From an uncultured Alphaproteobacteria bacterium (GTDB lineage Bacteria > Pseudomonadota > Alphaproteobacteria > HIMB59 > GCA-002718135), in NCBI GenBank assembly GCA_902588745.1, contig CACIQI010000001.1, positions 13,924 to 77,923 on the forward strand: a stretch of 64,000 nt of DNA. The letters run 5' to 3'. The position numbers were made by a program, and so were the translations under genes. The first letter of the stretch is position 1, and each line of letters starts with the position of its first letter. Positions 21,935-53,069 of this stretch are shown one piece after another. A model generated the notes under the pieces. The model was not told the origin of the DNA. It saw nothing but the letters and a program-made list of their open reading frames with translations, and searched no databases.

Positions 21935-22393
21935 TTAAATAAATTTTTCATTTTTTGTTGAATGCAACCATATAGCAAAAGCATCTAAAGGGACTAGCTT
22001 ACTCATATTTAAAAAATCAGATGCTTGTAAAAATTTGTACTTTATTCCTTCATTAAGTTTAATATTTTTAATCATTTCTTTATTAATTTTATATTCAAAA
22101 TAAGAGACAAAAATTTTATTTAATTTTTTAAATGATAAGTCAAAAGTAAATTTTGTAAAATAAGATAATTCTTTTTCTTCAATTGAAATTGACAATTCTT
22201 CATTTATTTCTCTTCTCAAGCAATTTTGTTCTGTTTCATTACTTTCAATCCCACCTCCAAAAACCCCCCAGTGTAATGGGTAAAAAATATTTCGCTTATC
22301 ATCTCTAAGTTGAAACAAATAATTATTATTTTCATCGTAAATTATTGCATGCACAGCATTTTTAGAGGCTACTAAATAATCTTCTTCTGACAT
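21935..22393 (-). CDS. NUDIX hydrolase
   Basis: Nudix box GGGIESNETEQNCLRREINEEL. I prefer the internal start MSEEDY (ATG at 22391-22393). The track start at 22468 would overlap the transketolase gene by 71 nt. Confidence 0.7.
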   Translation of the reverse strand: MSEEDYLVASKNAVHAIIYDENNNYLFQLRDDKRNIFYPLHWGVFGGGIESNETEQNCLRREINEELSISIEEKELSYFTKFTFDLSFKKLNKIFVSYFEYKINKEMIKNIKLNEGIKYKFLQASDFLNMSKLVPLDAFAIWLHSTKNEKFI

Positions 22394-22397
22394 GAAA

Positions 22398-23309: not shown

Positions 23310-24115
23310 GATTGTATTTCAAGTTCTTTCATTGCGATTTTATATTCTTCTTCATTTGGCGATCTGTAATGCCAAATTGGTTTATTTTCCATGTATGAAA
23401 CGCCCTTACCTTTAGTTGTATTACAGATAATTATAAAAGGTTTTTTAGTTTTTCTACTATTATATTTCTTTATTATATCCTCCTGATCATGACCATCAGC
23501 TTCAAAAGTTTCCCATCCAAAAGACTCTAATTTTGATTTGATTGGATAAAATTTAGGATGAACTTCTCTTGTAACTCCAAATGATTGCGAGCCGTTGTGA
23601 TCTAAAAAGCAAATTAAATTTTCACAATTTAAATTAGCAGCCATCATTAAAGCCTCCCATGTAGATCCCTCTTGTAATTCGCCATCACTGATCACAATAA
23701 AAATTTTTCTTTCTTCACTATTTATCTTATCAGCAGTATGCATTCCCACCGCTAAAGCCATACCATGACCAAGTGAACCTGTTGATGCTTCAATTCCTGG
23801 ATTTCCATAATCTGGATGAGCACCTAAAATTCCTCCGGGCTTACAATATTCATCAATTTGTTTATCAGAAATTATGCCAAGATAATTTAATACTACATAC
23901 TGCATTATACAGCTATGCCCTTTTGACATAATAAATGTATCATTAAATTTTTTTTCAGAAGTTTTAGACATTAATTCATTGTAAATTAAATCTACTATTT
24001 CAGTAGAAGAAAAAGCACCTCCAATATGTAAAGCAGGGACATTTTGAGAAATTTGAAGTATTTTTCTTCTAAAAAATAAACATCTATCTTTGTTATTATT
24101 TATTTTATTTTGCAT
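23306..24115 (-). CDS. transketolase, N-terminal (ThDP-binding) subunit
   Basis: 269 aa with SKGHSC, GSLGHGMALAVGM and ISDGELQEGSTWEA. Confidence 0.85.
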   Translation of the reverse strand: MQNKINNNKDRCLFFRRKILQISQNVPALHIGGAFSSTEIVDLIYNELMSKTSEKKFNDTFIMSKGHSCIMQYVVLNYLGIISDKQIDEYCKPGGILGAHPDYGNPGIEASTGSLGHGMALAVGMHTADKINSEERKIFIVISDGELQEGSTWEALMMAANLNCENLICFLDHNGSQSFGVTREVHPKFYPIKSKLESFGWETFEADGHDQEDIIKKYNSRKTKKPFIIICNTTKGKGVSYMENKPIWHYRSPNEEEYKIAMKELEIQS

Positions 24116-24116
24116 T

Positions 24117-24767
24117 TTATATAATTGTCCAATAATAATTACCTGTATATCCAGCTTTATTAAAAAGTTTTATCCAGTTTTCAGGATAGTCATGATAATA
24201 AGCAGTTAAAACCCAGCTCTCAAAAACCTTTTTTTCGTATTCGTTTCTATAAGAATCAACTTGTATAAAACTTTTTCCTTTAGAAACTCGCTCAATCTCT
24301 GTAAGACATTTAATTACACCATTTTGATCATAATTATGGATTGTATTTATAGAAATAACAAAATCAAAACATTTGTCAGGAAAAGGAAGTCTATCAGCTT
24401 TTCCTAAATGTAGTCGACCAATAGTTTCTTTTTCTGATTTTGAAATAGCATATTCTGAAATATCTATTCCATATGCGTCAATACCCAAGTTATGAAGATC
24501 TTTAACCAAAAACCCTTTTGCACAACCAATGTCTAAAACTTTATCACCTTTTTTTAAGTCGTAATGATTTATAATATCTTTGGCAACTGGCACCCATCGA
24601 CCATCATATTTATACCCCCCATATCCATACTCTCTTGGTCCGTCAAAGTACATCTCACCATATTCTCTTGAAATTCTTATAACTTCATCAGATTTATGTG
24701 TTTCTCTACTTTTAATGTCTCTTTTTTTTGGTTTAGGCAAAGATTTAAGTAGGTCAAGCTCAGACAT
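24117..24767 (-). CDS. class I SAM-dependent methyltransferase (paralog of 41348-42025)
   Basis: 216 aa with YGYGGYKYDGRWVPVAKDI and VLDIGCAKGFL. The same motifs occur in the 225-aa ORF at 41348-42025. Confidence 0.75.
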   Translation of the reverse strand: MSELDLLKSLPKPKKRDIKSRETHKSDEVIRISREYGEMYFDGPREYGYGGYKYDGRWVPVAKDIINHYDLKKGDKVLDIGCAKGFLVKDLHNLGIDAYGIDISEYAISKSEKETIGRLHLGKADRLPFPDKCFDFVISINTIHNYDQNGVIKCLTEIERVSKGKSFIQVDSYRNEYEKKVFESWVLTAYYHDYPENWIKLFNKAGYTGNYYWTII

Positions 24768-24783
24768 TTTGGAATTTGATATA

Positions 24784-25929
24784 TTATTTATCTAATAGTA
24801 TAAACCTTTTTTTTGCTAATTTTAGGCTTTTTATTATTTTTAAAGATAAGTCTCTTCTGAAAGGCATAATTATATTTTCAAATTTATGTATATCTTTGAC
24901 TGAAAGTATTTTTTTCTTCATGTGATAATTACCTATCTTATTAATATCTTGATCTATAAATTTATAATCCTTATTTTTTATTGATTGAGCAACCCATGTT
25001 GCTGCTATTGAAGTTCCAAAAATAGCTATATCACCCTTCAATTTTGTTATTTTGTTTAAAAAATTTTTATAAGAATTAAAATAAATATTTAATTTTATTT
25101 TTTTATTTATAAAATCATTATAATTGTATAGATTTTTATTTAAAATTTTATTTTCATTTCTCATTTTTAATAAAAAAGATATCTCTTTAGGTATTTTTTT
25201 ATTAAATAAAAATATTTTATTTAAATTTAGTTTTTTATTATAATTTCTAAAATCACTTTTAGCAAAATGAGAGCTATGATCCGCAACAAGAATATCAAAA
25301 GGAGAGTTCTCAAAATCTGGAACTTGAATAAAAAGATATCCAGTTTTTTTAAGTAAATATTTAATTTTTTCTAAAAATAAAACAGGATTTGGAACATGTT
25401 CCAATGTATGAATTAAAACAATTAAATCAAATTTTTTATCAATCTTATCAAGATTTAAAAAAAGTTTTTTAAAATTTTTAATTTTTTCTAATTTTTTTTT
25501 AAATCTTTTATCTTGCTCTAATCCATATAATTCCCAATTAGAATATTCTTTAGAAAATGATTTAAGAAATGGACCAGTTCCACATCCAATATCTAAAACA
25601 CTTCCATTTTTTTTAAATTTTATTTTAGAATTTATTAGATTTAAAATTTCCGAAGATCTATCATTCTGATCATTGTTATTAGAAGTAAATAATTTTTGAT
25701 CCTCACCCCTAGCACTTTTGAACATTTCATAATTTTTATAAATAGAATTTACTCTTTTTTTCCATTTTGCATCAATAGGTTTTTGGATTAAAAAACAATT
25801 AGAACATATTGATAAATCCCCTTTATAAAAAGTAGGTTTACAATCTGAACTAACTAAATAATAATTTGAAAATTTTTTAATTTTTATTAGTTTAGCTTCA
25901 CAGTTATGACAGATTAATTTTTTGCTCAT
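24784..25929 (-). CDS. three-part methyltransferase (zinc ribbon + class I MT + C-terminal domain), sugar C-methyltransferase-like architecture
   Basis: 381 aa with CHNC...CSNC at the N-terminus, VLDIGCGTGPF, LIHTLEHVPNP and an extra ~130-aa C-terminal domain. Confidence 0.6.
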   Translation of the reverse strand: MSKKLICHNCEAKLIKIKKFSNYYLVSSDCKPTFYKGDLSICSNCFLIQKPIDAKWKKRVNSIYKNYEMFKSARGEDQKLFTSNNNDQNDRSSEILNLINSKIKFKKNGSVLDIGCGTGPFLKSFSKEYSNWELYGLEQDKRFKKKLEKIKNFKKLFLNLDKIDKKFDLIVLIHTLEHVPNPVLFLEKIKYLLKKTGYLFIQVPDFENSPFDILVADHSSHFAKSDFRNYNKKLNLNKIFLFNKKIPKEISFLLKMRNENKILNKNLYNYNDFINKKIKLNIYFNSYKNFLNKITKLKGDIAIFGTSIAATWVAQSIKNKDYKFIDQDINKIGNYHMKKKILSVKDIHKFENIIMPFRRDLSLKIIKSLKLAKKRFILLDK

Positions 25930-27470
25930 AATAAGTTTTTGTATTTCTCTAAAAAATAATTTGGTATATTCGCTTCGAATTGTATATCATCAGTAAGAAG
26001 CGTATTATTATTTTTTATTATATTATTAATTTTTATTTGATTTTTTGAAATTTTTAAAATTTTTTTATTAGTATTATTTAATTTTTTTATCATTGTTGAA
26101 ACCAAATCTTTGATTTCATCTGAAGAATTCTCAACAAATTCTACTTCTAGCAAATTTTTATAAATTCCATCAAGGGCACCCATTGAAAATTTTTTTTCAA
26201 ACAAAGTATTAAAATCTAGCAAATTTCCGTTTTTATATTTTAATAAGCCCGGTAAGTATAAATCCTTTGAACCAAAATATAAAGTTGATAAAGGTCTATA
26301 ATTAGTCATTGCTATAGGAACATTCGCTATGTGAGATATTGCGGACATACCAGAGGATGTTCCTATCATGAACTTACATTGAGTAGATAAAAAGATATCC
26401 ATGAAATCTGATTTAATATTACTAAAAGGATAATCTATTATATTTTTTATATTTGGCATTCTTTTATTATTATCTTTTCCAATTCTAATAACCCAGCCGC
26501 CTGCATTTATAATTTCTTCAAAAGCAGGAAAATAATCCCTAATGTTTGCATCTCTATGATTTTCTCTACCTTTAAATGAATCATCTCTTACATGTACACA
26601 TACAAACCAATCATTTTTTTTAATCCCTATTTTATTTAATTTTTTCCAACCTAATTTTTTTTCATTTTCACTTAATTGAAAGAGAGGTTTTTTATTTTGA
26701 TTTTGCCAAATTTTGTTTACAAGAATTCCAGTAGATTGAGTATATAAATATAAGTTATTTTCAAACTTATAAAATTCATTTTGATGTATATCAAAAAGAC
26801 TTTCATACTTCTTATATTTTTTTATTAAATTTTCATCATAGATAAAATTAATATATTTTGATATTTTTTTAATATAAAAATCATTGATTGCTTTATTCTT
26901 AAATTCATTATGAACTAGACATATAAATTTATAATTTGGAATTAATCCTAGCTTGCATGACTTTAACGTAATATCAGTGATATATGATAAACCTATAGTA
27001 TTAAAAATATCTTTCGCTCGAATAAATCTAATGTTTTTTCTATTAAAATCATTACTATTTTGCATTTTGCTTAATATTTCAAAATACTTTTTCTTCAATA
27101 AAAAATAATTTTCTAAATCCAATGTATTATTTTTTATTTGAATATATTTCTGATAAAAATTAAAAGGATTTTTATTAATAGCTTCTATATTATCTAAGTA
27201 AAGTATATCAGATTTTTTTACTAGCAAATTTAGTTTTTTAAAATCAAATTTAATTTCATTTTCAATTATAAAATTGATTGTTTCTAAATAATAATCAATA
27301 AGAGAATTAAAGTTAAATTTATGAGGAAAATATTTTTCAATAAATGAAAAAACAATAAAATTAATTTTATTTTTCGAAATTACATATGATCTATAAAAAC
27401 TAAATAACCATTTTAACCTACCACCTTTTTTTAAAGGATAAAAAATATAATTAATTAAACTTCGCATCAT
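25926..27470 (-). CDS. uncharacterised protein, putative glycosyltransferase (possibly the TIGR04372-type family; paralog of 38416-39624)
   Basis: 514 aa. The C-terminal half shares W(F/I)C(V/I)H.RD, IR(I/V)G, D.(F/Y)L...CKF.IG..SG with the 402-aa ORF. The family assignment is from memory only. Confidence 0.4.
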   Translation of the reverse strand: MMRSLINYIFYPLKKGGRLKWLFSFYRSYVISKNKINFIVFSFIEKYFPHKFNFNSLIDYYLETINFIIENEIKFDFKKLNLLVKKSDILYLDNIEAINKNPFNFYQKYIQIKNNTLDLENYFLLKKKYFEILSKMQNSNDFNRKNIRFIRAKDIFNTIGLSYITDITLKSCKLGLIPNYKFICLVHNEFKNKAINDFYIKKISKYINFIYDENLIKKYKKYESLFDIHQNEFYKFENNLYLYTQSTGILVNKIWQNQNKKPLFQLSENEKKLGWKKLNKIGIKKNDWFVCVHVRDDSFKGRENHRDANIRDYFPAFEEIINAGGWVIRIGKDNNKRMPNIKNIIDYPFSNIKSDFMDIFLSTQCKFMIGTSSGMSAISHIANVPIAMTNYRPLSTLYFGSKDLYLPGLLKYKNGNLLDFNTLFEKKFSMGALDGIYKNLLEVEFVENSSDEIKDLVSTMIKKLNNTNKKILKISKNQIKINNIIKNNNTLLTDDIQFEANIPNYFLEKYKNLL

Positions 27471-28288: not shown

Positions 28289-29137
28289 TTAGTAGTGTTT
28301 ATATATTTTCTTTAGAACAATATCAATTTGGTTAAATTTAAAATTTGGGATTATATTTTGTATTCTTGATTTTTGAAAAGCTCGATATCCATTATGAGGC
28401 ATCTTTCCAGATCTCTTAGTAAAAATAATATTAATGTTTTTATTTGAAGTTTTTTTAATTATTTTAGCTATTTGAAAAAAAGAAAAAACTTTCCCAGAAG
28501 TTGCATTAATTTTTCCATAAATATTTTTTTTGATAATAATAAATATAATTTTAGCCAGATCATTTACCCAAATGTGATCTCTTTTTTCTTCACCTTTTCC
28601 AAAAAGAACAATATCTGAATTTTGTTTTGCTAATCTCACAAACTTATTAGGGCCATAACCATTATGAGGATCTTTGCTTCCATAAACAAGTGTTGGCCTA
28701 ACTATAGTTAATTTAATATTTAGAGTTTCTAATAATTTCTCTCTAGTCAAATGCATTATACCATGCAAAGAATCTGGATCTGTGATTGATCTTTCATTAA
28801 TTTTTTTAGAAGAATCTGCATATACTGCGTCAGAACTCACATATATTAAATGTTTAATTTTTTTATTATCTATACCAGCTATAAAGTTATTTAACATTGT
28901 TAAATTTTCATTAAACATTTTTAAATTTTTAACAGGTGCTTTTGCTGAAATAAAAATAATTACATCATTTTCATAAATTGTTTCTTTAATCTTTTTAATT
29001 GAAGATTTTTTAAGTAAATTTAGGTTTTGACTAGATAATGCTTTGTTTTGAATTTTTTTTTTATTTAACAAACTAATTATATTTTCAGCAATAAATCCAT
29101 TTTTACCAAAAATAACAACTCTTGATTTTTTATTCAT
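28289..29137 (-). CDS. atypical SDR-fold protein (epimerase/dehydratase-like, YxxxK replaced)
   Basis: 282 aa with IFGKNGFIAENI and SSDAVYA. The expected P.YG..K..E site reads SLHGIMHLTRE (His/His instead of Tyr/Lys). Confidence 0.6.
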   Translation of the reverse strand: MNKKSRVVIFGKNGFIAENIISLLNKKKIQNKALSSQNLNLLKKSSIKKIKETIYENDVIIFISAKAPVKNLKMFNENLTMLNNFIAGIDNKKIKHLIYVSSDAVYADSSKKINERSITDPDSLHGIMHLTREKLLETLNIKLTIVRPTLVYGSKDPHNGYGPNKFVRLAKQNSDIVLFGKGEEKRDHIWVNDLAKIIFIIIKKNIYGKINATSGKVFSFFQIAKIIKKTSNKNINIIFTKRSGKMPHNGYRAFQKSRIQNIIPNFKFNQIDIVLKKIYKHY

Positions 29138-29140
29138 AAT

Positions 29141-30388
29141 TTAAATAATTCTATATACTTCAATAGATTGATTTTTTGTTGGTTTAACAACAGAAAAAGG
29201 GTCTATTATTATTTTTTTATCTTTAATCATTATATTATTTAAGTCTATTTTTTTATATTCATTTAAATCTAACATTACAAATATAATATTTGATTTTTTA
29301 ATTAGATCTTTAATATTTTTAATTGATACACCATGAATATTTTTGATATTTTCACTTAATATAGAATCATGAACAAAAATTTTATTTGTTTTATTTTTTA
29401 TTTTTTTAATAAGATTTATTGAGGGGCTATTTTTTATTGAATTTGTATTTTTTTTATATGTAAGGCCAAGAACACCGACATGCAATTTATTTAAATTTTT
29501 ATTTTTTGAAACTTTAGAGAAAATATTATAACACCAATTTTTATAATAATTTGATAAATATTCAAAAGTTTGAAAAAGATGGATAGCTGATTTATTTTTT
29601 TTGCCTAAAGAAATTATGGAGTTTAAATCTCTCTCCAAATTTCCACCTGATATTCCAAGACCAGGATTTAAATATGCATCTTTGCCAATTCTAGAATCTA
29701 GATTTAAAGCTAATTTGATATCATTCCAATTAGCCCCTATTTTTTTTGATATTTCAGCAATTGAATTAGTGGTTGTAACTTGAGAAATTAAATACAAATT
29801 TATTGCAATTTTGCATAATTCAGCACTTTCATAATTCATATATAAAATTGGACACTTAAACTTTTTTAAAAAAGAATTATAGATTGTTGGAATTTTATTA
29901 TTATTATTCTTTCCAACTATAATTCTTTCTGGATTTAAAGCTCTTTGAAAGGCTTTGCCAAAAATTAAAGTTTCAACTTGATAAAATAGTTTATTTTTTG
30001 GCCAGTTTATTCTTCTTGTGAAACCCGGCGGTATTTGACATAAAATAATTAATATAATATTTTTGTTTAAATTTTTGATAATCTTTTTTAGTATGTTATT
30101 TATTTCTGAATAATTACTTTTGCCCTTGCTATTTGTTTTAATATCTATTGAAATATAAACAATACTGGCTTTATTCATATGAAGAATATTATTTGTAAAA
30201 AATATTTTGTTACTATTTTTTTTATAAAGCTTATTTAAGTTTGGCTCCTTAATATCAAAATTAGATTTTTTAAAATTATCAATTTTTTTAATGTCATTAT
30301 CGTAACAAATTACATCGTATTTTTTTTCAGCTGCAGAAATTGAAGACACTATACCTAAATGTGTCATACCTATAAAACCAATTTTCAT
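29141..30388 (-). CDS. UDP-glucose/GDP-mannose dehydrogenase-family protein lacking the catalytic cysteine
   Basis: 415 aa with three-domain family colinearity (IGFIGMTHLG, AELCKIAIN, DSRIG). The catalytic motif reads NPGLGISGGNLERD where family members have ..GGxCLPKD. Confidence 0.7.
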   Translation of the reverse strand: MKIGFIGMTHLGIVSSISAAEKKYDVICYDNDIKKIDNFKKSNFDIKEPNLNKLYKKNSNKIFFTNNILHMNKASIVYISIDIKTNSKGKSNYSEINNILKKIIKNLNKNIILIILCQIPPGFTRRINWPKNKLFYQVETLIFGKAFQRALNPERIIVGKNNNNKIPTIYNSFLKKFKCPILYMNYESAELCKIAINLYLISQVTTTNSIAEISKKIGANWNDIKLALNLDSRIGKDAYLNPGLGISGGNLERDLNSIISLGKKNKSAIHLFQTFEYLSNYYKNWCYNIFSKVSKNKNLNKLHVGVLGLTYKKNTNSIKNSPSINLIKKIKNKTNKIFVHDSILSENIKNIHGVSIKNIKDLIKKSNIIFVMLDLNEYKKIDLNNIMIKDKKIIIDPFSVVKPTKNQSIEVYRII

Positions 30389-31290
30389 TTGAGACTTTTT
30401 ATTATCTTATAATTATTGATTTGCTCACTCAAATCTAAAATTCTTCTTTTCTTTACTAAATTAAAAAAATGCTTATGTTCAATTTTCCAAGTAGGATCAC
30501 CAAATGGTTCAATAAATTTTTTTTCCTTTGGTATACCAGAGGGCAATATTCTTTTCCTTAAATACAAAGTCGAATCAGACCATTTACATAGATTATGTAC
30601 ATGTATTGAGCCTTTTTGCCCAACAATTTCACAACTAAAGTTATTTTTCCATGATGTTAAACTCATATCAAGATAATATTTAATTTTTGTATTATCTGAA
30701 ACTATAAAAGCATTATCGTAAGAATTGTTTTCAAATTTTGAAAAATTTATTTTTCTAAATTTTAATTTGTAATCTTTAAACCAAAAATAAATTAAATCAA
30801 TGAGATGTGAGCCAAGATCAGATAAAACACCATCTCCTTTATCTCTCCATAAACTTTGTTTTACTAATCTAGCTGTTCCATTACCATAGAATATTTTACA
30901 GTAATAAATCTTTCCTAATATTTTTTTATCTATATATTTTTTTACTCTAAGAAGATTAGGTTCAAATCTGTGATTGTAAGCAACATATAATACAATTTTT
31001 TTTTGTATAATTTGAGTGTTTATTCTTTGAAGTATTTTTTCATTTTTGAAATAAAGAGGTTTTTCTATTAAAATATGTTTTGAAAATTTTATACAAAAAT
31101 TAATTAATTCAAATTTATTATAGTCAGGGGTACAAATAAAAACAGAATTATAATCGTTTATTGGCACATCATTAATTTTTTTATAATTTGCTTTTTTGTT
31201 TATTGGATCAACAGTAGCTACTACATACTTCTTTAAAAATTTTAACCTTTTTAATCCTTGAGTGCCAAGACCTACAATAATTATTTTCAT
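30385..31290 (-). CDS. Gfo/Idh/MocA-family oxidoreductase
   Basis: 301 aa with MKIIIVGLGTQG and LIEKP. It has a 4-nt overlap with the downstream dehydrogenase homolog. Confidence 0.75.
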   Translation of the reverse strand: MKIIIVGLGTQGLKRLKFLKKYVVATVDPINKKANYKKINDVPINDYNSVFICTPDYNKFELINFCIKFSKHILIEKPLYFKNEKILQRINTQIIQKKIVLYVAYNHRFEPNLLRVKKYIDKKILGKIYYCKIFYGNGTARLVKQSLWRDKGDGVLSDLGSHLIDLIYFWFKDYKLKFRKINFSKFENNSYDNAFIVSDNTKIKYYLDMSLTSWKNNFSCEIVGQKGSIHVHNLCKWSDSTLYLRKRILPSGIPKEKKFIEPFGDPTWKIEHKHFFNLVKKRRILDLSEQINNYKIIKSLK

Positions 31291-32837
31291 TAACTTGAAT
31301 AATTAACTTTTTTTTCAATCTCATTTAATTTGGTAAGTACATGGGAAGTTTTTACAGGAATATTACCATCGTACTCGCATTCACATGCAGCTGCAATAGA
31401 GCCTAGAATGGAGGAAATAACAAGTGATTTTGACGATAACATAGATAGTGTTGAGTATGCTAATAATGCATCTCCAGCACCAACAGGATCAACAATATTA
31501 TTTACAAATGAATCTAGCGAGAAATATGAATTGTTAGACTTATTTTTGTATGTATTACAAAATACACCCTTAGAACCTAATTTTAAAATTAAATGTTTGT
31601 ATTTGCAATTATCATACAATAACTGTGATAGCTGACCGACTGTTGCATCTTGGTTTGCAAGTGCAAATCTTGATTCCCTTTCATTTGGCGTAATAAGATC
31701 AAATCCTTTAAAATCAGTTATATTACCCCATCGACTTGCTACTTGACTATCTGCAACCTTAAAGGTTTTTTTTGATATAGCTTTTGTTAATTTATTTGTA
31801 CTTATTTGATTAAAGATCCCATGTCTAAAATCACTAAAAACAACAGCATTAGATTTATCTTTTTTTAAAGATGAACATAAGAAATCAATAATTTCACTTG
31901 AAATTGGCCTGTTATCAAGTGTGTCGACCTTTAATAGTCTATAATCTGAAGCAATAAAGACATTTTTATTTGTTGTAGGTCTTGTATTATCTATGTAAAA
32001 ATTAGTAATAATTTTAGTTTTTTTAAATTGATTTAAAACAAATTTTTTTAGATTATCGTTACCTAAAACTGTTGAGAAAATTACTTTTGCCCCAGCAGAG
32101 TCTAAATGTTTTGATACTATTCCTGCGCCACCAACATAATCTTCTTTACTGTTGAAATGAAGACTGAATGTAGGTGTTTTAGTTTGACCACCAATTAAAG
32201 TGGTTCTAGTATAAGTGTCTACAATTGTATCCCCAATGACATGTACCTTTAGTTTTTTGAAATCCATTAAAGTTTTTTTTAAAGTTTCAAAATTAATTTT
32301 CTCTTTATGCATTAACATTATTAATTTTTCTAATCCAACTTCAGGAAGTGACTTATTTAAAAATTTTGAGGATGAATAAACAACATCTCCAGGTGTAAAA
32401 ATAATATTTCCACCGTATGATTTTAAGGCCTTAATTTCTTCTTGTGTTGCTTTAGGTAATCCAGCTGATGAATATTCAAATCCTTTTGCAAAATAATTTG
32501 GTCTTATTAATTTTATATTATTAATAGGGGTCGAATTTTTATCTATAACAACGTAATCAACCATTTCAAATGCTGCTAAATTTAAAGCTCTTAAATTTTC
32601 AGGAATATGAGGTCTATAGGTGCCTTTTTTTATATGTTTGTCACATGTAAGCGAAACTATTAGTTTATCAGCTTTAGTTTTAGCATACGTTAAATGTCTT
32701 ACATGCCCTGGATGAACTACATCAAATACGCCATGACACATTATGAAATTAAAATTTTTATTATTCTTTACAATTTTTTTTAATTGGCTTGAAGTTTTTA
32801 TCTTGTAGCTATATTTTTTTATTAATTCAGAAGACAT
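31290..32837 (-). CDS. bifunctional sugar-phosphate nucleotidyltransferase / PfkB sugar kinase (HldE-like with swapped domain order)
   Basis: 515 aa. The N-terminal CHGVFDVVHPGHVRHL is the HxGH cytidylyltransferase fold. The C-terminal VIGDTIVDTY..GGAGIV...DPVGAGDALLA is the PfkB kinase. Confidence 0.8.
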   Translation of the reverse strand: MSSELIKKYSYKIKTSSQLKKIVKNNKNFNFIMCHGVFDVVHPGHVRHLTYAKTKADKLIVSLTCDKHIKKGTYRPHIPENLRALNLAAFEMVDYVVIDKNSTPINNIKLIRPNYFAKGFEYSSAGLPKATQEEIKALKSYGGNIIFTPGDVVYSSSKFLNKSLPEVGLEKLIMLMHKEKINFETLKKTLMDFKKLKVHVIGDTIVDTYTRTTLIGGQTKTPTFSLHFNSKEDYVGGAGIVSKHLDSAGAKVIFSTVLGNDNLKKFVLNQFKKTKIITNFYIDNTRPTTNKNVFIASDYRLLKVDTLDNRPISSEIIDFLCSSLKKDKSNAVVFSDFRHGIFNQISTNKLTKAISKKTFKVADSQVASRWGNITDFKGFDLITPNERESRFALANQDATVGQLSQLLYDNCKYKHLILKLGSKGVFCNTYKNKSNNSYFSLDSFVNNIVDPVGAGDALLAYSTLSMLSSKSLVISSILGSIAAACECEYDGNIPVKTSHVLTKLNEIEKKVNYSS

Positions 32838-32842
32838 AATTT

Positions 32843-33838
32843 TTAAGACATATATTTAAACCATGATTTTGTAGCTTTATCTATATTTTTTTTATTCCAC
32901 AAGGGTGCATCTTGCCATTTATTAATTTCCTTGAGCATATTTTTAACACCTTTTTCAAACTTTACTTTAGGTTTCCATTTTAAAAATTTAGATATTTTTT
33001 CATTAGATGACCATGTACAATCTGGCTCACCTGGTCTTTTAGGTAAATAAGTTTTTTCCCCGCCTATGATATCTGCTAAGAGATTGATACTTTGAGGATT
33101 ATTTGCTCCTAAGTTAAAAATTTGATTATTTACTCTACTTTCTGCAGCTTTCACAAAAGCGTTTGCAACATCAGTAACATAAACAAAATCTCTTTTTTGT
33201 TCTCCATTTCCAACTATTGTTAAGGGTTTACCAGAAAGTTTTTGTTTAAAGAAAACACCAAAAACAGCACCATAAACTCCAGTTGTCCTAACTCTTGTTC
33301 CATAAGCGTTAAATATTCTAAGGGATATGTAATTCTGTTTATAAACTTTATGATAATGAATTATCAATTGTTCTCCCTGATATTTACTTAAAGCATAAGG
33401 ATACAATGGGTTGATTTTATGGCCTTCATTTGTTGGCGTTTTTGCTAAACCATAGCATGAAGATGAGGCGGCATATATTATTTTTTTAATATTATTGTTT
33501 CTTGCAGATTCAAGAATATTTAATGTTCCAAAAACATTAGTATTAAAGTATTTTTTTGGATTTTCGATTGAGGGTACAATATCTCCTTTCCCAGCAAAAT
33601 GAAAAACATAATCTACATCCTTAAAAAAACTACTGTTTGGTGAAATATTAATAATATTTTTTTTTTCTAACAATAGATTTTTGTTTCTTTTATGGTGAAT
33701 TAAATTATTTTCATGACCACCCGACAAATCATCTAATATTCTTACTTTATAATTTTTTTTTAATAATAAATCCACTGTATGACTGCCAATAAATCCAGCT
33801 CCTCCTGTAACGACAGCAGTCTTTTTTCTATTTGGCAT
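32843..33838 (-). CDS. NAD-dependent nucleotide-sugar epimerase/dehydratase (extended SDR)
   Basis: 331 aa with VTGGAGFIGSH and YALSKYQGE (YxxxK). Confidence 0.8.
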   Translation of the reverse strand: MPNRKKTAVVTGGAGFIGSHTVDLLLKKNYKVRILDDLSGGHENNLIHHKRNKNLLLEKKNIINISPNSSFFKDVDYVFHFAGKGDIVPSIENPKKYFNTNVFGTLNILESARNNNIKKIIYAASSSCYGLAKTPTNEGHKINPLYPYALSKYQGEQLIIHYHKVYKQNYISLRIFNAYGTRVRTTGVYGAVFGVFFKQKLSGKPLTIVGNGEQKRDFVYVTDVANAFVKAAESRVNNQIFNLGANNPQSINLLADIIGGEKTYLPKRPGEPDCTWSSNEKISKFLKWKPKVKFEKGVKNMLKEINKWQDAPLWNKKNIDKATKSWFKYMS

Positions 33839-34829
33839 TAATTTTTAGTAATTTTTTGACATTAAAATAATTTTCATTTTCAAATGTATCTATAGCAACT
33901 TGTTTCTTAAAATTTAAACATAATTCTTCTATTGCATTTTCTAATGTATATTGTGGAGAATATCCTAATATTTCCTTAATTTTGTCAGAATTAATGTGAT
34001 ACGACCTATTATCATCACTTGGAGTTTTAATCATTTCAATTTCAAAGCCAGGGAAAAATTTATTTTCAACTACATTTTTTACTTTTTGTGCAATTTCATT
34101 AATAGATAGATTTTGATATCCAACATTGAAAATCTGATTTTCTATAAGATGTTTAGGAGCTTCTAATAATAATTTTACAGCATTACAATAATCTTTAACA
34201 TGTAAGTTTGGTCTTAGTTGGTCACCACCAAAAATTTTAATGAATTTTTTATTGTACGCAAAATTTGTTAGTATATTTACAGATAGATCTAGTCTTAACC
34301 TAGGAGCGTATCCACATACAGTTGCGGGTCTAAATATTACTCCTTCGAATTTGTCATCTGTATGTTTAAGTAGAATTGGTTCACATAAACCTTTAAATTT
34401 ATTATAAAGAGTAAGAGGAAGTAAAGGATGATCCTCTTTAACATCTTTTTTATCGGAAACACCATAAACAGAACTAGATGAAGCATATATAAATCTTTTA
34501 ATACCTGCTTTCTTAGCTGCAAGAACCATTGGTTCAAAGGCATCATAATTAACGCTTGTAGATAAATTTTCATCTAATTCAAAACTCGCATCATTTGAAA
34601 TACATGCAAGGCTGACAAAATAATCATGATCTTTTGCGCATTCATTTATTTTATTACTGTCTCTTATATCGCCTTTTATTATTTTTAAGTTTTGATTTTT
34701 TTTTGGCAGGAATTCATCCCCAAAATACATAATATCATAAACTGTTACAAAGTATCCTGAATCTAGCAACAATGGTACTAGTTGACTTCCGCAATATCCT
34801 GCACCACCTGTAATGAAAACTTTTTTCAT
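33828..34829 (-). CDS. NAD-dependent nucleotide-sugar epimerase/dehydratase (extended SDR)
   Basis: 333 aa with ITGGAGYCGS, SSSSVYG and YNKFK (YxxxK). Confidence 0.8.
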   Translation of the reverse strand: MKKVFITGGAGYCGSQLVPLLLDSGYFVTVYDIMYFGDEFLPKKNQNLKIIKGDIRDSNKINECAKDHDYFVSLACISNDASFELDENLSTSVNYDAFEPMVLAAKKAGIKRFIYASSSSVYGVSDKKDVKEDHPLLPLTLYNKFKGLCEPILLKHTDDKFEGVIFRPATVCGYAPRLRLDLSVNILTNFAYNKKFIKIFGGDQLRPNLHVKDYCNAVKLLLEAPKHLIENQIFNVGYQNLSINEIAQKVKNVVENKFFPGFEIEMIKTPSDDNRSYHINSDKIKEILGYSPQYTLENAIEELCLNFKKQVAIDTFENENYFNVKKLLKINAK

Positions 34830-34831
34830 AA

Positions 34832-35557
34832 TTATTTTATTTTATATCCAGCATTAGAAGCATCATTAAAAAACATTTTAACAGTATCTAGAGAAAATTC
34901 GTTCAAATCTTTTCCTATAGATTCTAACTTAGAAAGTAAATTTATTGGTACTGTGATAATATCGGTTTTAGTCTCTATTGCTTGAAAAATATTTAATAGC
35001 TCTCTAGGACTGGCCCATAGTAATTCACAATTTTTATTTAAATTTGTTCTATCTGAACATTCTTTCATTATCGTCATTGGATCAATTCCTGTATCAGCTA
35101 TTCTTCCTGCAAAAACTGATAGAATCAATGGCGTATCTACCTCACCAATTTCTTTCAACAAGGTATTTAATTGATTAAAAGTAAAAATTGCAGTTACATT
35201 ACATTTAACACCACTAAGAAGAAGATCTTTTACTAGATTATTGGTCGATATCCCTTTTGTATTTGTGATAGGAATTTTGACATATACATTTTCACCCCAA
35301 CTAGAAATTATTTTTGCTTGTTCATTCATTTCATCAATATCGTCAGCAAATACTTCAAAAGAAATTGATTTTTCATTACTAATGTTTTTAATTAATTTTT
35401 TAGCAAAATCGTTATAATCTTCAACTCCGGCATTCTTCATAAGAGTTGGATTTGTTGTAAAACCTTTTATCAATTTATTTTCATTTAACTCTAACATGCC
35501 TTTAAAATCGGCGCCATCAGCAAAAATTTTGATATTATCTAGATTATCTACCATCAA
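34832..35557 (-). CDS. transaldolase / fructose-6-phosphate-aldolase-family enzyme
   Basis: 241 aa with FADGADF, GFTTNPTLM and VYVKIP (Schiff-base Lys context). Confidence 0.8.
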   Translation of the reverse strand: MMVDNLDNIKIFADGADFKGMLELNENKLIKGFTTNPTLMKNAGVEDYNDFAKKLIKNISNEKSISFEVFADDIDEMNEQAKIISSWGENVYVKIPITNTKGISTNNLVKDLLLSGVKCNVTAIFTFNQLNTLLKEIGEVDTPLILSVFAGRIADTGIDPMTIMKECSDRTNLNKNCELLWASPRELLNIFQAIETKTDIITVPINLLSKLESIGKDLNEFSLDTVKMFFNDASNAGYKIK

Positions 35558-36086
35558 ATTTTAAAATAAAGTTTGTTGCGTCAAATAAATTTTTAAATGT
35601 TTTATAGTTATTTATATTCGATTCCTCAATTAAATCATTTTTAATAAATATTGGAGTGCATCCAGCTTTTCTTCCTGCAACCATATCAGAATGCCTATCT
35701 CCAATCATGAAACTTCGTTTTAAATTGATTTGATACTTTCTGGCTAGATCAGTAATCATTTTTGGCTTAGGTTTTCTACAATCACAATTTGCAGTTTGAC
35801 TATGAAAGCAATATTTTATTTCATCTATTTTTACTTCTTTTAATATTTTGGCATTCATTTTAAAAATAATTTCTTTTTTAATTTTTTTATTTCCAACATC
35901 TGGCTGATTACTTACTATAAAAATTTTATATTTTTTTTTTTTTAATTTAATTATTGCATCAATAGATCTATTTATAAATTTAAAATCTGAGATATTTTTT
36001 GGAGCAAAGCATTTATTATTAATGTATATACATTCATTTACTACACCATCGCGATCTAAAAAAACAGCGATATTATTTTCTACCAT
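35544..36086 (-). CDS. gmhB: D,D-heptose 1,7-bisphosphate phosphatase-type HAD phosphatase
   Basis: 180 aa with FLDRDGVVN, the zinc motif CFH...CDCRKPKP and GDRHSD. Confidence 0.85.
   Translation of the reverse strand: MVENNIAVFLDRDGVVNECIYINNKCFAPKNISDFKFINRSIDAIIKLKKKKYKIFIVSNQPDVGNKKIKKEIIFKMNAKILKEVKIDEIKYCFHSQTANCDCRKPKPKMITDLARKYQINLKRSFMIGDRHSDMVAGRKAGCTPIFIKNDLIEESNINNYKTFKNLFDATNFILKFDGR
35931..35943. repeat. 13-nt A/T homopolymer inside the gmhB coding sequence
   Basis: Read directly: T13 on the plus strand (A13 in the mRNA sense, encoding LKKKKY). It is the longest homopolymer I noticed in the window. Confidence 0.9.
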
Positions 36087-36676
36087 TTAGTTTTATTAGC
36101 TTGTAGCAAGGGATGAGATACAAGACAATGCCAAACAACAGATTGAAATGACTCTGATATAGGTGTAATTAATTTTTGATCTTGTGATTCTATCAAAATA
36201 GAAACATTAGAATTTTTTGCAGCATATCCATTTTTTTTTCCAATAATTGAGAAAATCTTGGATTTTTTCAATTTTGCAAACTTTATAGCGTTTACAATAT
36301 TAATACTAACTCGTTTTTTTATATTTCCTCCTCCAACAGAAAAAATTAATATGGCATCCTTATTATTTAATTTACTAATTTTTAACCATTCTGAAATACT
36401 ACTATCCCATCCTTCATCATTAATTCTTGCTGTTAATTCGGATACATTATCAATTGGAGAATAAGTTTCAATTTTGCATAATTTTCTAAAATCATTTACT
36501 GCATGTGATGCATTTCCCGCACTTCCTCCTACACCTATAATAAAAAGTCTTCCATTTTTTTTTCTCAAATTAGAAAGTTGATAAGCTAATTTTTCAATTT
36601 TATTATAATCAATATTTTTAGAAGAAAGAATAATATTGCTAAAATAATTTTCTATGTGGTTAGTCATTATGATCAC
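36080..36676 (-). CDS. gmhA: SIS-domain sugar-phosphate isomerase (phosphoheptose isomerase type)
   Basis: 198 aa with GVGGSAGNASHAVNDF and FSVGGGN. It is translationally coupled to gmhB. Confidence 0.8.
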   Translation of the reverse strand: MIIMTNHIENYFSNIILSSKNIDYNKIEKLAYQLSNLRKKNGRLFIIGVGGSAGNASHAVNDFRKLCKIETYSPIDNVSELTARINDEGWDSSISEWLKISKLNNKDAILIFSVGGGNIKKRVSINIVNAIKFAKLKKSKIFSIIGKKNGYAAKNSNVSILIESQDQKLITPISESFQSVVWHCLVSHPLLQANKTKW

Positions 36677-38423
36677 TTATATTAATATTTGATAGTTTTC
36701 TATTTTTAATTTCATAAACTTGATCACATCTGTTTAATAAATCTTTATCATGGGATATAATTAACAAAGTTTTTGTATTTTTTAAACTTACCAAAATATT
36801 AATTAGTTCAGTTTTAGTATTTGAATCTAAAGCACTAGTTGGTTCATCTAAAATTAATAAATCAGCAGATTTATATAAAGATCTTGCAATTCCAATTCTT
36901 TGAATTTGTCCTCCTGATAGGTTAGATGCATCTTCTTCAACATTAGTCTCTATTCCATCTGGTAAAGATTCAATAAATTCAGTTAATTGTGAAGCTGATA
37001 TAGCAAAATTTAGTTTATCTTCATCAAAATTTTTTTCAAAATCAAAAGTTATATTCTGAAGAATTGAAGCTTCAAATAATGTATTTCTTTGAGAAACCAT
37101 TCCGATTTTGTTATGCCATATACTAATAATATCGTTTAAGTTATATTTATCATTTAATATAATATTATTATAATCAACAACTATTAAACCTGATAATATA
37201 TTTATTAAGCTAGTTTTTCCTATACCGCTTTTACCAGTAATAGCTACCATACTATTTTTTTTAAGTTCCAGTTCAAGATTATCAAAAATAAGGTCTTTGC
37301 TTTCTTCAAATTTAAATGTTAAATTTTTTATTTTAAGATTTTTAAATTTAAAATCTGAGACTTTATTTATTGATTGAAGTTCTGATTTATCAAAATTATT
37401 GTTTAAATAGATATTTTCTTCGAAAATTTTTAAAAGTGATGCCTTTCCAAATCTTAATTGCTGAGTATTTGTTACAATTCTGTTTACAGACGGAAGGAGT
37501 CTAAATCCTGCAACAGCAAACATTGCTACAGTAGATACTATTTCTGAGGAGTCTAGAGAATTGAATAAAAAAACTGTAATTATCACCATAAACAAAAGAG
37601 AAATAAACTCTAACCAAAATCTTGGCTGCTGATCTAATACAGATTGTTTTGCCGCAGCATGTGCAGATAGATTAATATTTCTAAAATAATTTTGTACAAA
37701 AATCGGTTTTTTTTTATTCAATTTTATTTCTTTAAAATTTGTGAATGATTGATAAATATTTTTAATTGATCTTTCAGAGTATTCTAAATTTAATCTACCC
37801 CATGAAATATTAAATCTTCTAGCAATGGATAAGTAAATTAAAGAAATAATTAAAATAAAAGCAATTAAAATGAAGGAGACATAAGTATACAAATAGAATA
37901 ATAAAGATAATATCAATAACGAAACAAAAACTTCACTCACCAGAATAGTAAGTGGAACTAAATAGTTTGAACAAAAAACATCAACTTGTTTTAAAATAGT
38001 ATTATAAGCAATATTACTGCTTCTTTGAATCATTGAGGTGTAGTTAAGTGAAAGATATTTGTTTAAAAGATTTTTACTTAAATTTACCTTCATATCTTTA
38101 ACAAACATAGCGAGAATATATGATAGTAAAGTTAGATATAGTGATTTGAATCCATACATTGCAATAATAATAATTAAAAAGATTAATACTAAATCAGAAC
38201 GATTTGAAATATCATACTGAAGATAAGTTGAAATTATTCTTAAAAAATTGTTATCAGATTCAACAACTAAATTTAGAAATGGGAAAATGATACCTATACT
38301 CAACATCTCAAAAACTGCACCAAGAAATGTGAGAATTATTATAATTATAATTGTTATTATTTTCTTATCAGAAAGATTTAGCAATACATTTACGAATTTA
38401 TTTAAACCAAAAATACTAAGCAT
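36660..38423 (-). CDS. fused TMD-NBD ABC exporter (MsbA/PglK-like)
   Basis: 587 aa with an N-terminal 6-TM-type domain, Walker A GKSGIGKTS, signature LSGGQIQR and Walker B LLILDEPTS. Confidence 0.85.
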   Translation of the reverse strand: MLSIFGLNKFVNVLLNLSDKKIITIIIIIILTFLGAVFEMLSIGIIFPFLNLVVESDNNFLRIISTYLQYDISNRSDLVLIFLIIIIAMYGFKSLYLTLLSYILAMFVKDMKVNLSKNLLNKYLSLNYTSMIQRSSNIAYNTILKQVDVFCSNYLVPLTILVSEVFVSLLILSLLFYLYTYVSFILIAFILIISLIYLSIARRFNISWGRLNLEYSERSIKNIYQSFTNFKEIKLNKKKPIFVQNYFRNINLSAHAAAKQSVLDQQPRFWLEFISLLFMVIITVFLFNSLDSSEIVSTVAMFAVAGFRLLPSVNRIVTNTQQLRFGKASLLKIFEENIYLNNNFDKSELQSINKVSDFKFKNLKIKNLTFKFEESKDLIFDNLELELKKNSMVAITGKSGIGKTSLINILSGLIVVDYNNIILNDKYNLNDIISIWHNKIGMVSQRNTLFEASILQNITFDFEKNFDEDKLNFAISASQLTEFIESLPDGIETNVEEDASNLSGGQIQRIGIARSLYKSADLLILDEPTSALDSNTKTELINILVSLKNTKTLLIISHDKDLLNRCDQVYEIKNRKLSNINISDHND

Positions 38424-42028: not shown

Positions 42029-42685
42029 TCACTTAAATTCTAATAAATTTTGAATAAATAAATCTTGAAAATTATCAATGATAAAATCAGCATCTTTTAA
42101 AATAAATCTATTATTTGTATTTGTAATTGCTATACATCTCATTTTAGCTTTTTTTGCAGATATTATACCCAATGGAGCATTTTCTATAACTAAACAATTA
42201 TCGTAACCAATATTAAGTTTTTTTGAAGCCATTAAAAATGGTTCTGGATGGGGTTTATTATTAGTGACCACATCTCCTGAAATTATAACATCAAATAATT
42301 TAATTAATTTTTTAGGCAGTGAATGATTAACTTGTATTGAGTGACTAGAAGTAACTAATCCTAAATAAAAATTCTTTTCTTTAATTTTAACTAAAGTTTT
42401 TTCTACAAAAGGATATAATTTAATCTTATTAACTTTACTTAGGTAAATTTCTTTTTTTTTTTTAACTATACTTGATACTATTCTTTCATTATATTTTATA
42501 TTATTTTTATCAAAAAAAAATTGAGTTATTTTATCAAGAGACATTCCTTCAAGTGGATAATAATCAGTTTCATTTATATTTATATTGAAATTTTTAAGGA
42601 CTTCCTTCCAAGACAAAAAATGTAGCTTCATACTTTTTATCAAAGTACCATCTAAATCAAAAAGTATTAATCTATTATTTTGCAA
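42029..42685 (-). CDS. HAD-superfamily hydrolase (beta-phosphoglucomutase/phosphatase subfamily IA)
   Basis: 218 aa with LFDLDGTLI, VTSS, NKPHPEPF and a C-terminal acidic motif. Confidence 0.8.
   Translation of the reverse strand: MQNNRLILFDLDGTLIKSMKLHFLSWKEVLKNFNININETDYYPLEGMSLDKITQFFFDKNNIKYNERIVSSIVKKKKEIYLSKVNKIKLYPFVEKTLVKIKEKNFYLGLVTSSHSIQVNHSLPKKLIKLFDVIISGDVVTNNKPHPEPFLMASKKLNIGYDNCLVIENAPLGIISAKKAKMRCIAITNTNNRFILKDADFIIDNFQDLFIQNLLEFK
42452..42463. repeat. 12-nt A/T homopolymer inside the HAD hydrolase coding sequence
   Basis: Read directly: T12 on the plus strand (A12 in the mRNA sense, encoding KKKK). Confidence 0.9.
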
Positions 42686-43199
42686 ATTTTGAAAGAATTA
42701 ATTTCATCCAATCGCCAAGATATTTATAGTGAGGTGAGGTAATAATTTTTTTATCTTCAACAACTGGTCCCTTATAATAATAAGCTCCAGAATTATTTAT
42801 ATCATCTTCAATGCTATAGTACCCAGAAATTTTTGTATTCTTTACTATTTTTGCACTAATTAAAAGTTGAGCTCCATGACATATACTGCCAATATAAATT
42901 TTGTTTTTGTAAAAATCCTTAATTATTGAAAGTGTTTTTTTATCTTGTCTTAAATACTCCATAGCTTTTGCACCACCTGGTAATATTAATAAATCATAAT
43001 TTTTGGTTTTTACTTTACTCATTTTAATTAGTTTATGATCTTTGTTTGGTGGAATTTGCGTACCTAATATACCTTTAACAGGAGCATCACCAAGTAAACA
43101 AACGTCTACTTTAAATTTTTCTTCTAAAAGCCTATAATATGGATATATAAATTCATGATCTTGTACTAAATTTCCTGAAAGCATTAGTGCTTTATTCAT
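42675..43199 (-). CDS. DJ-1/PfpI-family protein
   Basis: 174 aa with EFIYPYYRL, LILPGG and the nucleophile elbow SICHGAQLL. Confidence 0.8.
   Translation of the reverse strand: MNKALMLSGNLVQDHEFIYPYYRLLEEKFKVDVCLLGDAPVKGILGTQIPPNKDHKLIKMSKVKTKNYDLLILPGGAKAMEYLRQDKKTLSIIKDFYKNKIYIGSICHGAQLLISAKIVKNTKISGYYSIEDDINNSGAYYYKGPVVEDKKIITSPHYKYLGDWMKLILSKFAK

Positions 43200-52992: not shown

Positions 52993-53069
<77 letters not shown>

Follow-up and report, generated by a model that had tools for sequence, protein, structure and literature searches.

Introduction

The lincomycin and celesticetin pathways are said to build GDP-octose through LmbR, LmbN, LmbP, LmbK, and LmbO, with LmbR reportedly making octulose-8-phosphate, and LmbR is to our knowledge the only characterised transaldolase embedded in a nucleoside diphosphate (NDP)-sugar pathway. 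The heptose clusters known to us (those of the lipopolysaccharide [LPS] core, the Campylobacter and Burkholderia capsules, septacidin, and hygromycin B) use cellular sedoheptulose-7-phosphate (S7P), which is available in every cell, and contain no tal gene. Two-carbon branching of keto-sugar nucleotides is carried out by thiamine diphosphate (ThDP)-dependent enzymes such as YerE for yersiniose and the PDH-E1-like pairs for aldgarose and the avilamycin sugars. Here, we analysed a 64,000-nucleotide stretch of contig CACIQI010000001.1 from an uncultured alphaproteobacterium (the window), in which a transaldolase (TAL) gene stands in a conserved cassette together with relatives of heptose enzymes and a nucleotidyltransferase (NT)/PfkB kinase fusion of reversed domain order.

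Heptose nucleotidyltransferases have been classed as mono-domain NT, kinase/NT, and isomerase/kinase/NT proteins, and the NT/kinase order is unlisted among these classes (PMC11573728). During modification of the capsular heptose of C. jejuni, the C4-dehydrogenase Cj1427 acts together with C3/C5 epimerases and C4 reductases (PMC10680097). A full-text literature search found no description of the cassette reported here or of an NT-then-PfkB heptose enzyme. From its gene content, the cassette is predicted to make a nucleotide-activated sugar of at least seven carbons, from central sugar phosphates, for a surface glycan.

Results

Six linked genes form the front end of a conserved cassette

The initial annotation of the window described six linked genes as a self-contained module for a nucleotide-activated higher-carbon sugar. 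All six are present on the minus strand, from 36676 down to 31290, in the order SIS isomerase, HAD phosphatase, TAL, two extended short-chain dehydrogenases/reductases (SDR1 and SDR2), and the NT/kinase fusion (Table 1). Their tight linkage is borne out as well: by the open reading frame (ORF) coordinates, SIS and HAD overlap by 7 nucleotides (nt) and HAD and TAL by 14 nt (11 nt if the start is the ATG at TAL codon 2), while SDR1 overlaps SDR2 by 11 nt and the fusion overlaps the following GFO/IDH/MocA oxidoreductase (GFO) gene by 1 nt. Because the genes overlap or nearly abut, we read them as one operon, which would include the upstream ABC exporter gene and the downstream GFO gene.

A tblastn survey covered 85 loci, and the counts below refer to the 54 loci whose flanks were long enough. 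What we observed directly is the gene content and its conservation, the catalytic motifs and fusions, and the co-variation of TAL with the loop type of the isomerase. The collinear order is SIS, HAD, TAL, SDR1, SDR2, NT/kinase fusion, GFO, a UDP-glucose dehydrogenase (UGDH)-like gene, an RmlD-like gene, the methyltransferase gene MT216 (in some loci followed by a weakly similar SDR gene), and a split transketolase (in some loci with a NUDIX gene). TAL, SDR1, and SDR2 were each found in 51 of the 54 loci, SIS in 47, and HAD in 45; GFO, which adjoins the fusion, and the UGDH-like gene were present in all 54, and the counts for the genes further downstream are given in Table 1. The same collinear order is found in dozens of independent loci from different phyla, and since it recurs across phyla, the arrangement goes far beyond chance. 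The six genes are thus not self-contained, because the conserved cassette runs on through the GFO, UGDH-like, RmlD-like, methyltransferase, transketolase, and NUDIX genes to about 21935. It spans 36676 to 21935 in the window, where three extra genes (a second RmlD-like SDR, a TIGR04372 glycosyltransferase, and a methyltransferase) lie between the RmlD-like gene and MT216.

Relatives of the fusion were detected in 418 species in a scan with one representative genome per species. The carriers belong to the Alpha-, Beta-, Gamma-, and Deltaproteobacteria, Nitrospirota, Bacteroidota, Acidobacteria, and Ignavibacteria, and they include the cultured bacteria Labrys miyagiensis, Nisaea denitrificans, and Azospirillum sp. 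TSO22-1. No cassette match was obtained in 5,426 E. coli genomes. For two loci without TAL/SIS, the upstream ORF lists were inspected, and they were uninformative for the high-GC Azospirillum locus. Altogether, the cassette is a conserved and horizontally spread unit of 10 to 13 genes, and the proposal of a single functional module that supplies a nucleotide-activated higher-carbon sugar is supported.

The transaldolase is an integral part of the cassette

TAL scores 301 bits against the TIGR02134 equivalog cutoff of 281.95. Aligned with the solved short transaldolases of T. acidophilum and T. maritima, its active site keeps D14, TTNPT, E68, the Schiff-base K94, N120/T122, the Phe of "FAGR," and the S/R phosphate site, all conserved in 61 cassette homologs. 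A Phe instead of a Tyr reportedly distinguishes transaldolase from fructose-6-phosphate aldolase, and a reading of TAL as an Fsa-type aldolase was rejected because it has the transaldolase-type Phe (not Tyr) and Glu. Judged from these residues, TAL is catalytically intact and of the Tal rather than the Fsa type.

An exhaustive search of representatives returned 469 members of the TAL family at E < 1e-30, among which cassette and non-cassette transaldolases are not sharply split by identity (40 to 68%). HAD-TAL fusion proteins of 430 residues fall into two clusters and come from at least 10 independent contigs, and one TAL-SIS fusion protein was found whose SIS part is 45% identical to the window SIS and carries the same hallmark motifs. 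The carriers include orders with a transaldolase of their own. The initial annotation treated TAL as integral to the module and not as a stray housekeeping gene, and this view stands: TAL belongs to the pathway because it is kept across phyla (51/54 loci), is fused to HAD or SIS, and co-varies strictly with the isomerase subtype.

Three relatives of TAL have other partners, two representatives being fused to a GIY-YIG/NUMOD3 homing-endonuclease module and one to a PDZ plus radical-SAM-like domain. The homing-endonuclease partners point to transaldolase genes carried by phages.

The isomerase loop co-varies with the transaldolase

The SIS protein is divergent from GmhA. Its match to Pfam SIS_2 is 24.5 bits, below the gathering score, and the best solved GmhA, that of C. 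jejuni (1TK9), matches with 28 bits; against the GmhA equivalog cutoffs, it reaches 40 versus 209 (TIGR00441) and 41.5 versus 265 (NF001628). E65 and H180 of E. coli GmhA are said to be the catalytic acid/base pair. In the cassette proteins, E65 is replaced by an invariant Asp, and D94 and H180 are kept in 56/56 homologs. The phosphate loop of E. coli GmhA has 6 residues (S119-S124, STSGNS), whereas all 56 TAL-linked cassettes have a loop of 12 residues, "SVGGG....[VI]S," in place of this canonical SxSGxS form. The E. coli GmhA sequence used as the reference matches PDB 2I22 over the region compared, loop included.

The HAD protein scores 125 bits against the cutoff of 178 of the GmhB model NF006506 and 87 against 150 of TIGR00213, and it is above the cutoffs of TIGR01656 (120 bits) and TIGR01662. 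Its motifs are all present, namely, the DRDGV nucleophile, SNQ, the CFH...CDC zinc motif of GmhB/HisB type, RKPKP, and GDRHSD. SIS and TAL are adjacent with no HAD between them in several loci, including one on a complete Ca. Pelagibacter chromosome, and the SIS-TAL-SDR1 block of Nisaea is inverted and lies downstream. It seems that SIS-TAL is the tightest pair of the cassette.

A second cassette type made it possible to compare loop types with and without TAL. A plasmid search returned only two distant (30%) homologs of the fusion, on the A. oryzae plasmid NZ_CP054615 and on Solidesulfovibrio pDCAR1, and a metagenome scan with these two plasmid fusions yielded 80 more loci of this type 2. The type-2 fusion is about 30% identical to the window fusion and has the same NT-then-PfkB architecture. 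The order in type-2 cassettes is SDR2, NT/kinase fusion, SIS, SDR1, and a split transketolase or PDH-E1 alpha/beta pair, often with an MT216-like methyltransferase, and they are without GFO, UGDH-like, and RmlD-like genes. Radical SAM genes, NeuB-family genes, and genes for CMP-sugar transferases are further members of some type-2 loci.

TAL was found in only 1 of the 82 type-2 loci and a GmhB-like HAD in 4, and the type-2 SIS has the canonical 6-residue loop (SSSGxS) in 48/50 cases. The sole type-2 locus with TAL (L166) combines TAL, a SIS with the 12-residue loop, HAD, a type-2 fusion, SDR1, and transketolase; neither a GFO nor a UGDH-like homolog was detected on its 9.9-kb contig. TAL, the long-loop SIS, and HAD travel together, independent of the NT/kinase type; by their predicted roles, these are the proteins that would form the distal end of the sugar, bind it through the phosphate loop, and strip it of its phosphate.

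The NT/kinase fusion has the reverse of the HldE order

Pfam places CTP_transf_like at residues 34 to 145 and PfkB at residues 197 to 493 of the 515-residue fusion, while NCBIfam places rfaE_dom_II (adenylyltransferase) at residues 28 to 162 and rfaE_dom_I (kinase) at residues 191 to 499. When the full HldE model is aligned, its C-terminal positions 319 to 440 fall on fusion residues 10 to 127. The NCBIfam domain matches confirm the initial annotation in that the order, with NT first and PfkB last, is reversed relative to HldE. Invariant in 44 homologs are the HPGH motif (H42-H45), GG (G236-G237), NxxE (N385/E388), and GAGD (G453-D456). The scores remain far from the HldE cutoffs, at 142 versus 521 for NF008454, 123.5 versus 345 for domain I, and 91.6 versus 181.5 for domain II.

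The best solved sequence relatives are B. pseudomallei HldC (5X9Q) for the NT domain and B. cenocepacia HldA. An AlphaFold (AF2) model of the fusion has a pLDDT of 82.7, and its closest structure is B. cenocepacia HldA, ahead of other PfkB kinases. The arginine of the "STTR5" motif of heptose nucleotidyltransferases has been tied to NTP promiscuity (PMC11573728). This position aligns to a nearly invariant Tyr154 in the fusion family, which leaves the nucleotide choice of the fusion open.

Such a reversed HldE-like fusion is not rare. More than 7,000 homologs (90% clusters) share the two Pfam domains, their order, and the length at 60 to 88% identity, and homologs are still 60 to 65% identical in Ignavibacteriales, Bacteroidota, Desulfobacteria, and Gammaproteobacteria; this is a very large family, with relatives in the 418 species of our scan. 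The identical fusion protein occurs in TARA ocean metagenomes. The public names of the homologs are generic ("PfkB family carbohydrate kinase") or derived from HldE ("ADP-heptose synthase," "rfaE bifunctional protein"), and among the curated NCBIfam models matched by the window proteins, none names the NT/kinase fusion, the long-loop SIS, or the UGDH-like dehydrogenase described below.

Putative tailoring genes follow the fusion

SDR1 aligns over its full length with 6VO6/6VO8 (140 bits, E 1e-39); we take 6VO6 to be C. jejuni Cj1427, the GDP-heptose C4 dehydrogenase. SDR2 matches 6DNT with 176 bits. Neither SDR reaches the HldD cutoff (124 and 75 versus 275). Both have the SSS...YxxxK motif and neither has the TDE dehydratase motif, for which reason a 4,6-dehydratase reading of SDR1 and SDR2 was rejected.

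The UGDH-like protein has the three-domain architecture PF03721, PF00984, and PF03720. Its "SGGNLERD" aligns to "GGSCFPKD" of 3GG2, which puts an Asn at the catalytic Cys site; a Cys occupies this site in none of the 56 cassette homologs, while a TviB-like paralog in the window (20637-21926) keeps "GGHCIGVD." The catalytic Cys of UGDH is required for the second oxidation, which completes the four-electron conversion to the acid. Since it is missing, the UGDH-like enzyme may stop at the aldehyde or carry out another two-electron oxidation. The protein also has an unusual N-terminal dinucleotide motif, G-M/L-T-H-L-G. It appears to represent an undescribed branch of the UGDH family.

The split transketolase probably acts in tailoring, where it would extend a keto- or aldehydo-sugar nucleotide by two carbons, because it stands beside SDR1 in TAL-less cassettes and is interchangeable there with PDH-E1-type enzymes, which replace it in several loci. 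Homologs of the TIGR04372-family glycosyltransferase lie near the cassette in at least nine other loci, and this protein is a candidate transferase for the product. An ABC gene directly upstream of the cassette, as in the window, was also seen in six other loci.

TABLE 1 Positions of the cassette genes and of associated genes in the window
Feature	Position	Strand	Basis or remark
PglK/MsbA-like ABC exporter; overlaps the SIS start; frequent neighbour, not core	36660-38423	-	NF050066 PglK 269 bits, below cutoff
SIS isomerase, GmhA-like but divergent ("long-loop" subtype), 198 aa	36080-36676	-	GmhA-type matches only, all weak
HAD-IIIA phosphatase, GmhB-like, 180 aa	35544-36086	-	NF006506, TIGR01656, catalytic motifs
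Transaldolase (TAL), short type, 241 aa	34832-35557	-	TIGR02134
SDR1, extended SDR, NDP-sugar dehydrogenase/epimerase type	33828-34829	-	Nearest solved 6VO6/6VO8
SDR2, extended SDR, GalE/WbpP-like 4-epimerase type	32843-33838	-	Nearest solved 6DNT, 4ZRM, WbgU, WbpP
NT (N-terminal) and PfkB sugar kinase (C-terminal) fusion, 515 aa	31290-32837	-	Pfam, NCBIfam, structure match
GFO/IDH/MocA oxidoreductase, sugar 3-oxidoreductase-like	30385-31290	-	Pfam; weak matches to DgpA and related structures
UGDH-like NDP-sugar dehydrogenase-family protein, Cys to Asn	29141-30388	-	TIGR03026 202 bits vs cutoff 190
RmlD-like short SDR, probable keto-sugar reductase	28289-29137	-	Present in 53/54 loci
TIGR04372-family glycosyltransferase, inserted, variable	25926-27470	-	164 bits vs cutoff 45
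Class I S-adenosylmethionine methyltransferase MT216	24117-24767	-	Orthologs 57-67% identical after the RmlD-like gene, 47/54 loci
Split transketolase-like ThDP enzyme (N subunit 23306-24115, C subunit 22398-23309)	22398-24115	-	Orthologs 52-69% identical, 29/54 loci
NUDIX hydrolase, variably associated	21935-22468	-	12/54 loci within 8-10 kb; also in the A. oryzae type-2 cluster

The cassette lies in a surface-glycan island

The G+C content of the window is about 23%, and almost every gene lies on the minus strand. One large surface-glycan island takes up the window from its first position to about 55 kb. Besides rmlA/C/D-like and asparagine-synthase-like genes and a NeuB/CMP-transferase set, the island encodes many methyltransferases, along with sugar aminotransferases, glycosyltransferases, ThDP enzymes, and an ABC flippase. 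Two tRNA genes (52996-53069 and 55012-55085, minus strand) stand near the right edge of the island with an FkbM-type methyltransferase gene and an unassigned ORF between them, and beyond them lie the suf operon (sufB, sufC), mnmA, and tyrS. The region of the two tRNA genes is likely the boundary or the integration region of the island.

Several other gene groups of the island were seen on the minus strand. A 562-residue fusion of a CMP-sugar cytidylyltransferase (CTP_transf_3) and a GFO/IDH/MocA oxidoreductase (18947-20635) stands beside three genes (15670-16680, 16775-17806, and 17809-18954) that encode a NeuB-family synthase, an SDR, and a DegT aminotransferase, and together they look like a nonulosonic acid pathway in which the fusion is unusual. 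Two adjacent ThDP enzymes of acetolactate-synthase type (43192-47575), one of which has 858 residues with an N-terminal extension of about 250 residues without a Pfam match, have two DegT aminotransferase genes upstream and are followed by a DJ-1/PfpI protein and a HAD_2 hydrolase (with 42029-43199); this pair may belong to a second branched-sugar pathway or to another pathway. Two asparagine-synthase-like amidotransferases (7141-9009 and 13835-15667) lie among many methyltransferases and probably amidate a sugar acid.

Discussion

All reactions set out here are inferred, and so are the chain length, the nucleotide, and the end product. On the enzyme families present, a general route that leads from a ketose phosphate through an aldose phosphate, a 1,omega-bisphosphate, and a 1-phosphate to an NDP-sugar and its tailoring is very probable. 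TAL would first join a dihydroxyacetone unit, donated by fructose-6-phosphate or S7P, to an aldose phosphate, and the resulting ketose phosphate would be isomerised to an aldose phosphate by the long-loop SIS. The C-terminal PfkB domain would then phosphorylate O-1, the GmhB-like HAD would remove the distal phosphate, and the N-terminal HxGH domain would couple the sugar-1-phosphate to a nucleoside triphosphate (NTP). Finally, SDR1 and SDR2 would oxidise or epimerise the NDP-sugar. Further tailoring would involve GFO, the RmlD-like reductase, the methyltransferase, the Cys-less UGDH-like enzyme, whose product is probably an aldehyde or ketone, and the ThDP enzyme, which probably adds a two-carbon unit.

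The substrate on which the front end works decides the chain length. TAL, the long-loop SIS, and HAD may form a co-adapted unit that handles a ketose phosphate other than S7P, most plausibly octulose-8-phosphate by analogy with the logic of LmbR, LmbN, and LmbK, and we regard this proposal as evenly balanced. A non-S7P ketose is favoured because TAL co-varies with the loop type and because SIS, HAD, and the fusion score far below the heptose equivalog cutoffs; the precedent of LmbR and the general availability of S7P, on which the known heptose clusters draw without a tal gene, point the same way. If the product of TAL is not a central metabolite, then simple acceptors would give an eight-carbon (C8) sugar from a pentose-5-phosphate or a nine-carbon (C9) sugar from a hexose-6-phosphate. 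A complete C8 or longer route, in which octulose-8-phosphate would become an NDP-octose and oxidation with two-carbon extension or branching would lead to a methylated sugar of the C10 class in surface glycans, both of SAR11 and of many other bacteria, is a more doubtful proposal, and we advance it tentatively.

Several points weigh against an octulose substrate. Among characterised proteins, those nearest to SIS, HAD, kinase, and NT are without exception heptose enzymes and not octose enzymes, and TAL is an ordinary-looking member of TIGR02134, which NCBI treats as a staphylococcal housekeeping enzyme, with an active site that bears no mark of a new specificity. No TAL is nearby in 3 of the 54 loci and no SIS in 7. 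With erythrose-4-phosphate as the acceptor, TAL would give plain S7P, and glycan clusters often carry spare central enzymes. A longer phosphate loop by itself does not mean a longer sugar. TAL, the long-loop SIS, and HAD could co-vary because they are inherited as one linked block and not because they are co-adapted; the linkage is broken only by L166.

The alternative that these points suggest, and to which we give a sizeable minority chance, is that TAL merely secures the supply of S7P, perhaps together with the split transketolase, and that the product is a modified NDP-D-glycero-D-manno-heptose with a seven-carbon backbone and perhaps a two-carbon branch and a methyl group. An unaltered active site in a standard TIGR02134 member and the kinship of the other front-end proteins with heptose enzymes are what this alternative would predict; the loci without TAL or SIS nearby look as if host enzymes substitute there, and mobile glycan clusters often hold their own copies of central enzymes. 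It accounts less well for the distribution of the genes. The heptose clusters known to us have no tal gene, TAL-less type-2 cassettes keep the canonical loop while the TAL-linked SIS proteins all have the 12-residue loop, which is unexpected if both use S7P, and HAD too is largely confined to TAL-containing cassettes. In this alternative, the split transketolase would convert two fructose-6-phosphate to S7P and xylulose-5-phosphate, and the initial annotation had considered it as an S7P supplier; this role is unlikely, as the gene also occurs in TAL-less type-2 cassettes, where a PDH-E1-type enzyme can replace it. On the whole, the evidence leans toward a substrate other than S7P, for which C8 would be a plausible length.

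It is improbable that TAL and/or the transketolase act late, adding three or two carbons to an NDP-sugar aldehyde that the Cys-less UGDH-like enzyme has produced. Aldehydes are acceptors of transaldolases and transketolases, an aldehyde is the likely product of a UGDH-like enzyme without the Cys for the second oxidation, and this enzyme and GFO accompany each other in 54/54 TAL-type cassettes and are absent from type 2. The position of TAL between HAD and SDR1, its fusion to HAD or SIS, and its co-variation with the SIS loop place it instead at the sugar-phosphate stage, where its conserved phosphate-binding residues also fit, and L166 has TAL, the long-loop SIS, and HAD on a 9.9-kb contig in which GFO and the UGDH-like gene were undetected. 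Least probable is a plain ADP-L-glycero-D-manno-heptose pathway that serves the LPS inner core and has a housekeeping transaldolase as its neighbour, as the public names "ADP-heptose synthase" and "rfaE bifunctional protein" would have it, since the scores are far below the equivalog cutoffs (GmhA 40/209, GmhB 125/178, HldE 142/521, and the SDRs below the HldD cutoff of 275), the surrounding glycan island is variable and also encodes a flippase, glycosyltransferases, and numerous tailoring enzymes, and the cassette occurs in Burkholderiales, Bordetella, and Enterobacteriaceae, which have canonical gmhA, hldE, gmhB, and tal.

The cassette is located in a variable surface-glycan island attributed to SAR11, the most abundant marine bacterium, and such islands are thought to govern recognition by phages and grazers. 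NDP-heptoses are innate immune agonists that act on ALPK1, so that new NDP-heptose-like metabolites would be of interest there. A product of eight or more carbons would make this the first pathway to provide a cell-surface glycan with an octose-type sugar, and the lincomycin scheme of a transaldolase followed by heptose-like enzymes would be common in nature and not the curiosity of one antibiotic. If the product is derived from a heptose, the loci still define two large uncharacterised families of reversed NT/kinase proteins, an order unlisted in PMC11573728, a Cys-less NDP-sugar dehydrogenase family, and a recurrent ThDP-dependent tailoring step. Because cultured carriers exist, the question of the product is directly testable.

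Compared with the ADP-heptose pathway, the cassette shares a SIS isomerase, a PfkB anomeric kinase, a HAD-IIIA phosphatase with the zinc motif, and an HxGH nucleotidyltransferase, and HldA, HldC, and GmhA are the best solved matches of its proteins. It differs in the reversed fusion, the scores below cutoff, a SIS loop that is 6 residues longer, and Tyr154 in place of the STTR5 Arg, as well as in its built-in transaldolase, the absence of an HldD ortholog, and its location in a variable glycan island with tailoring genes. With the GDP-octose pathway of lincomycin, it has in common the five activities (transaldolase, isomerase, anomeric kinase, phosphatase, and NT), which here are all encoded within 31290-36676, and their logical order. 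The Lmb pathway reportedly uses a GHMP kinase and an NTP_transferase-family enzyme as separate proteins of the alpha-anomer GDP branch in an actinomycete antibiotic cluster, whereas the cassette has a PfkB and HxGH fusion of the beta-anomer-type branch in a surface-glycan setting of Gram-negative and other bacteria.

The C. jejuni capsule route, which oxidises C4, tailors the sugar, and then reduces it, follows a logic that fits the RmlD-like reductase of the cassette. In contrast to that route, the cassette has no cupin-type epimerase, carries GFO, the Cys-less UGDH-like enzyme, a methyltransferase, and a ThDP enzyme, and probably differs in nucleotide and anomer. As in the known ThDP branching systems, a ThDP enzyme stands beside a C4-dehydrogenase-like SDR in both cassette types, but the sugar would be a heptose or longer, and the enzyme, whose function here is a prediction, is mostly transketolase-like and not acetolactate-synthase-like. 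The enzyme families and the pathway logic are known, and what is new is the combination of the front end, the architecture of the fusion, and the tailoring set.

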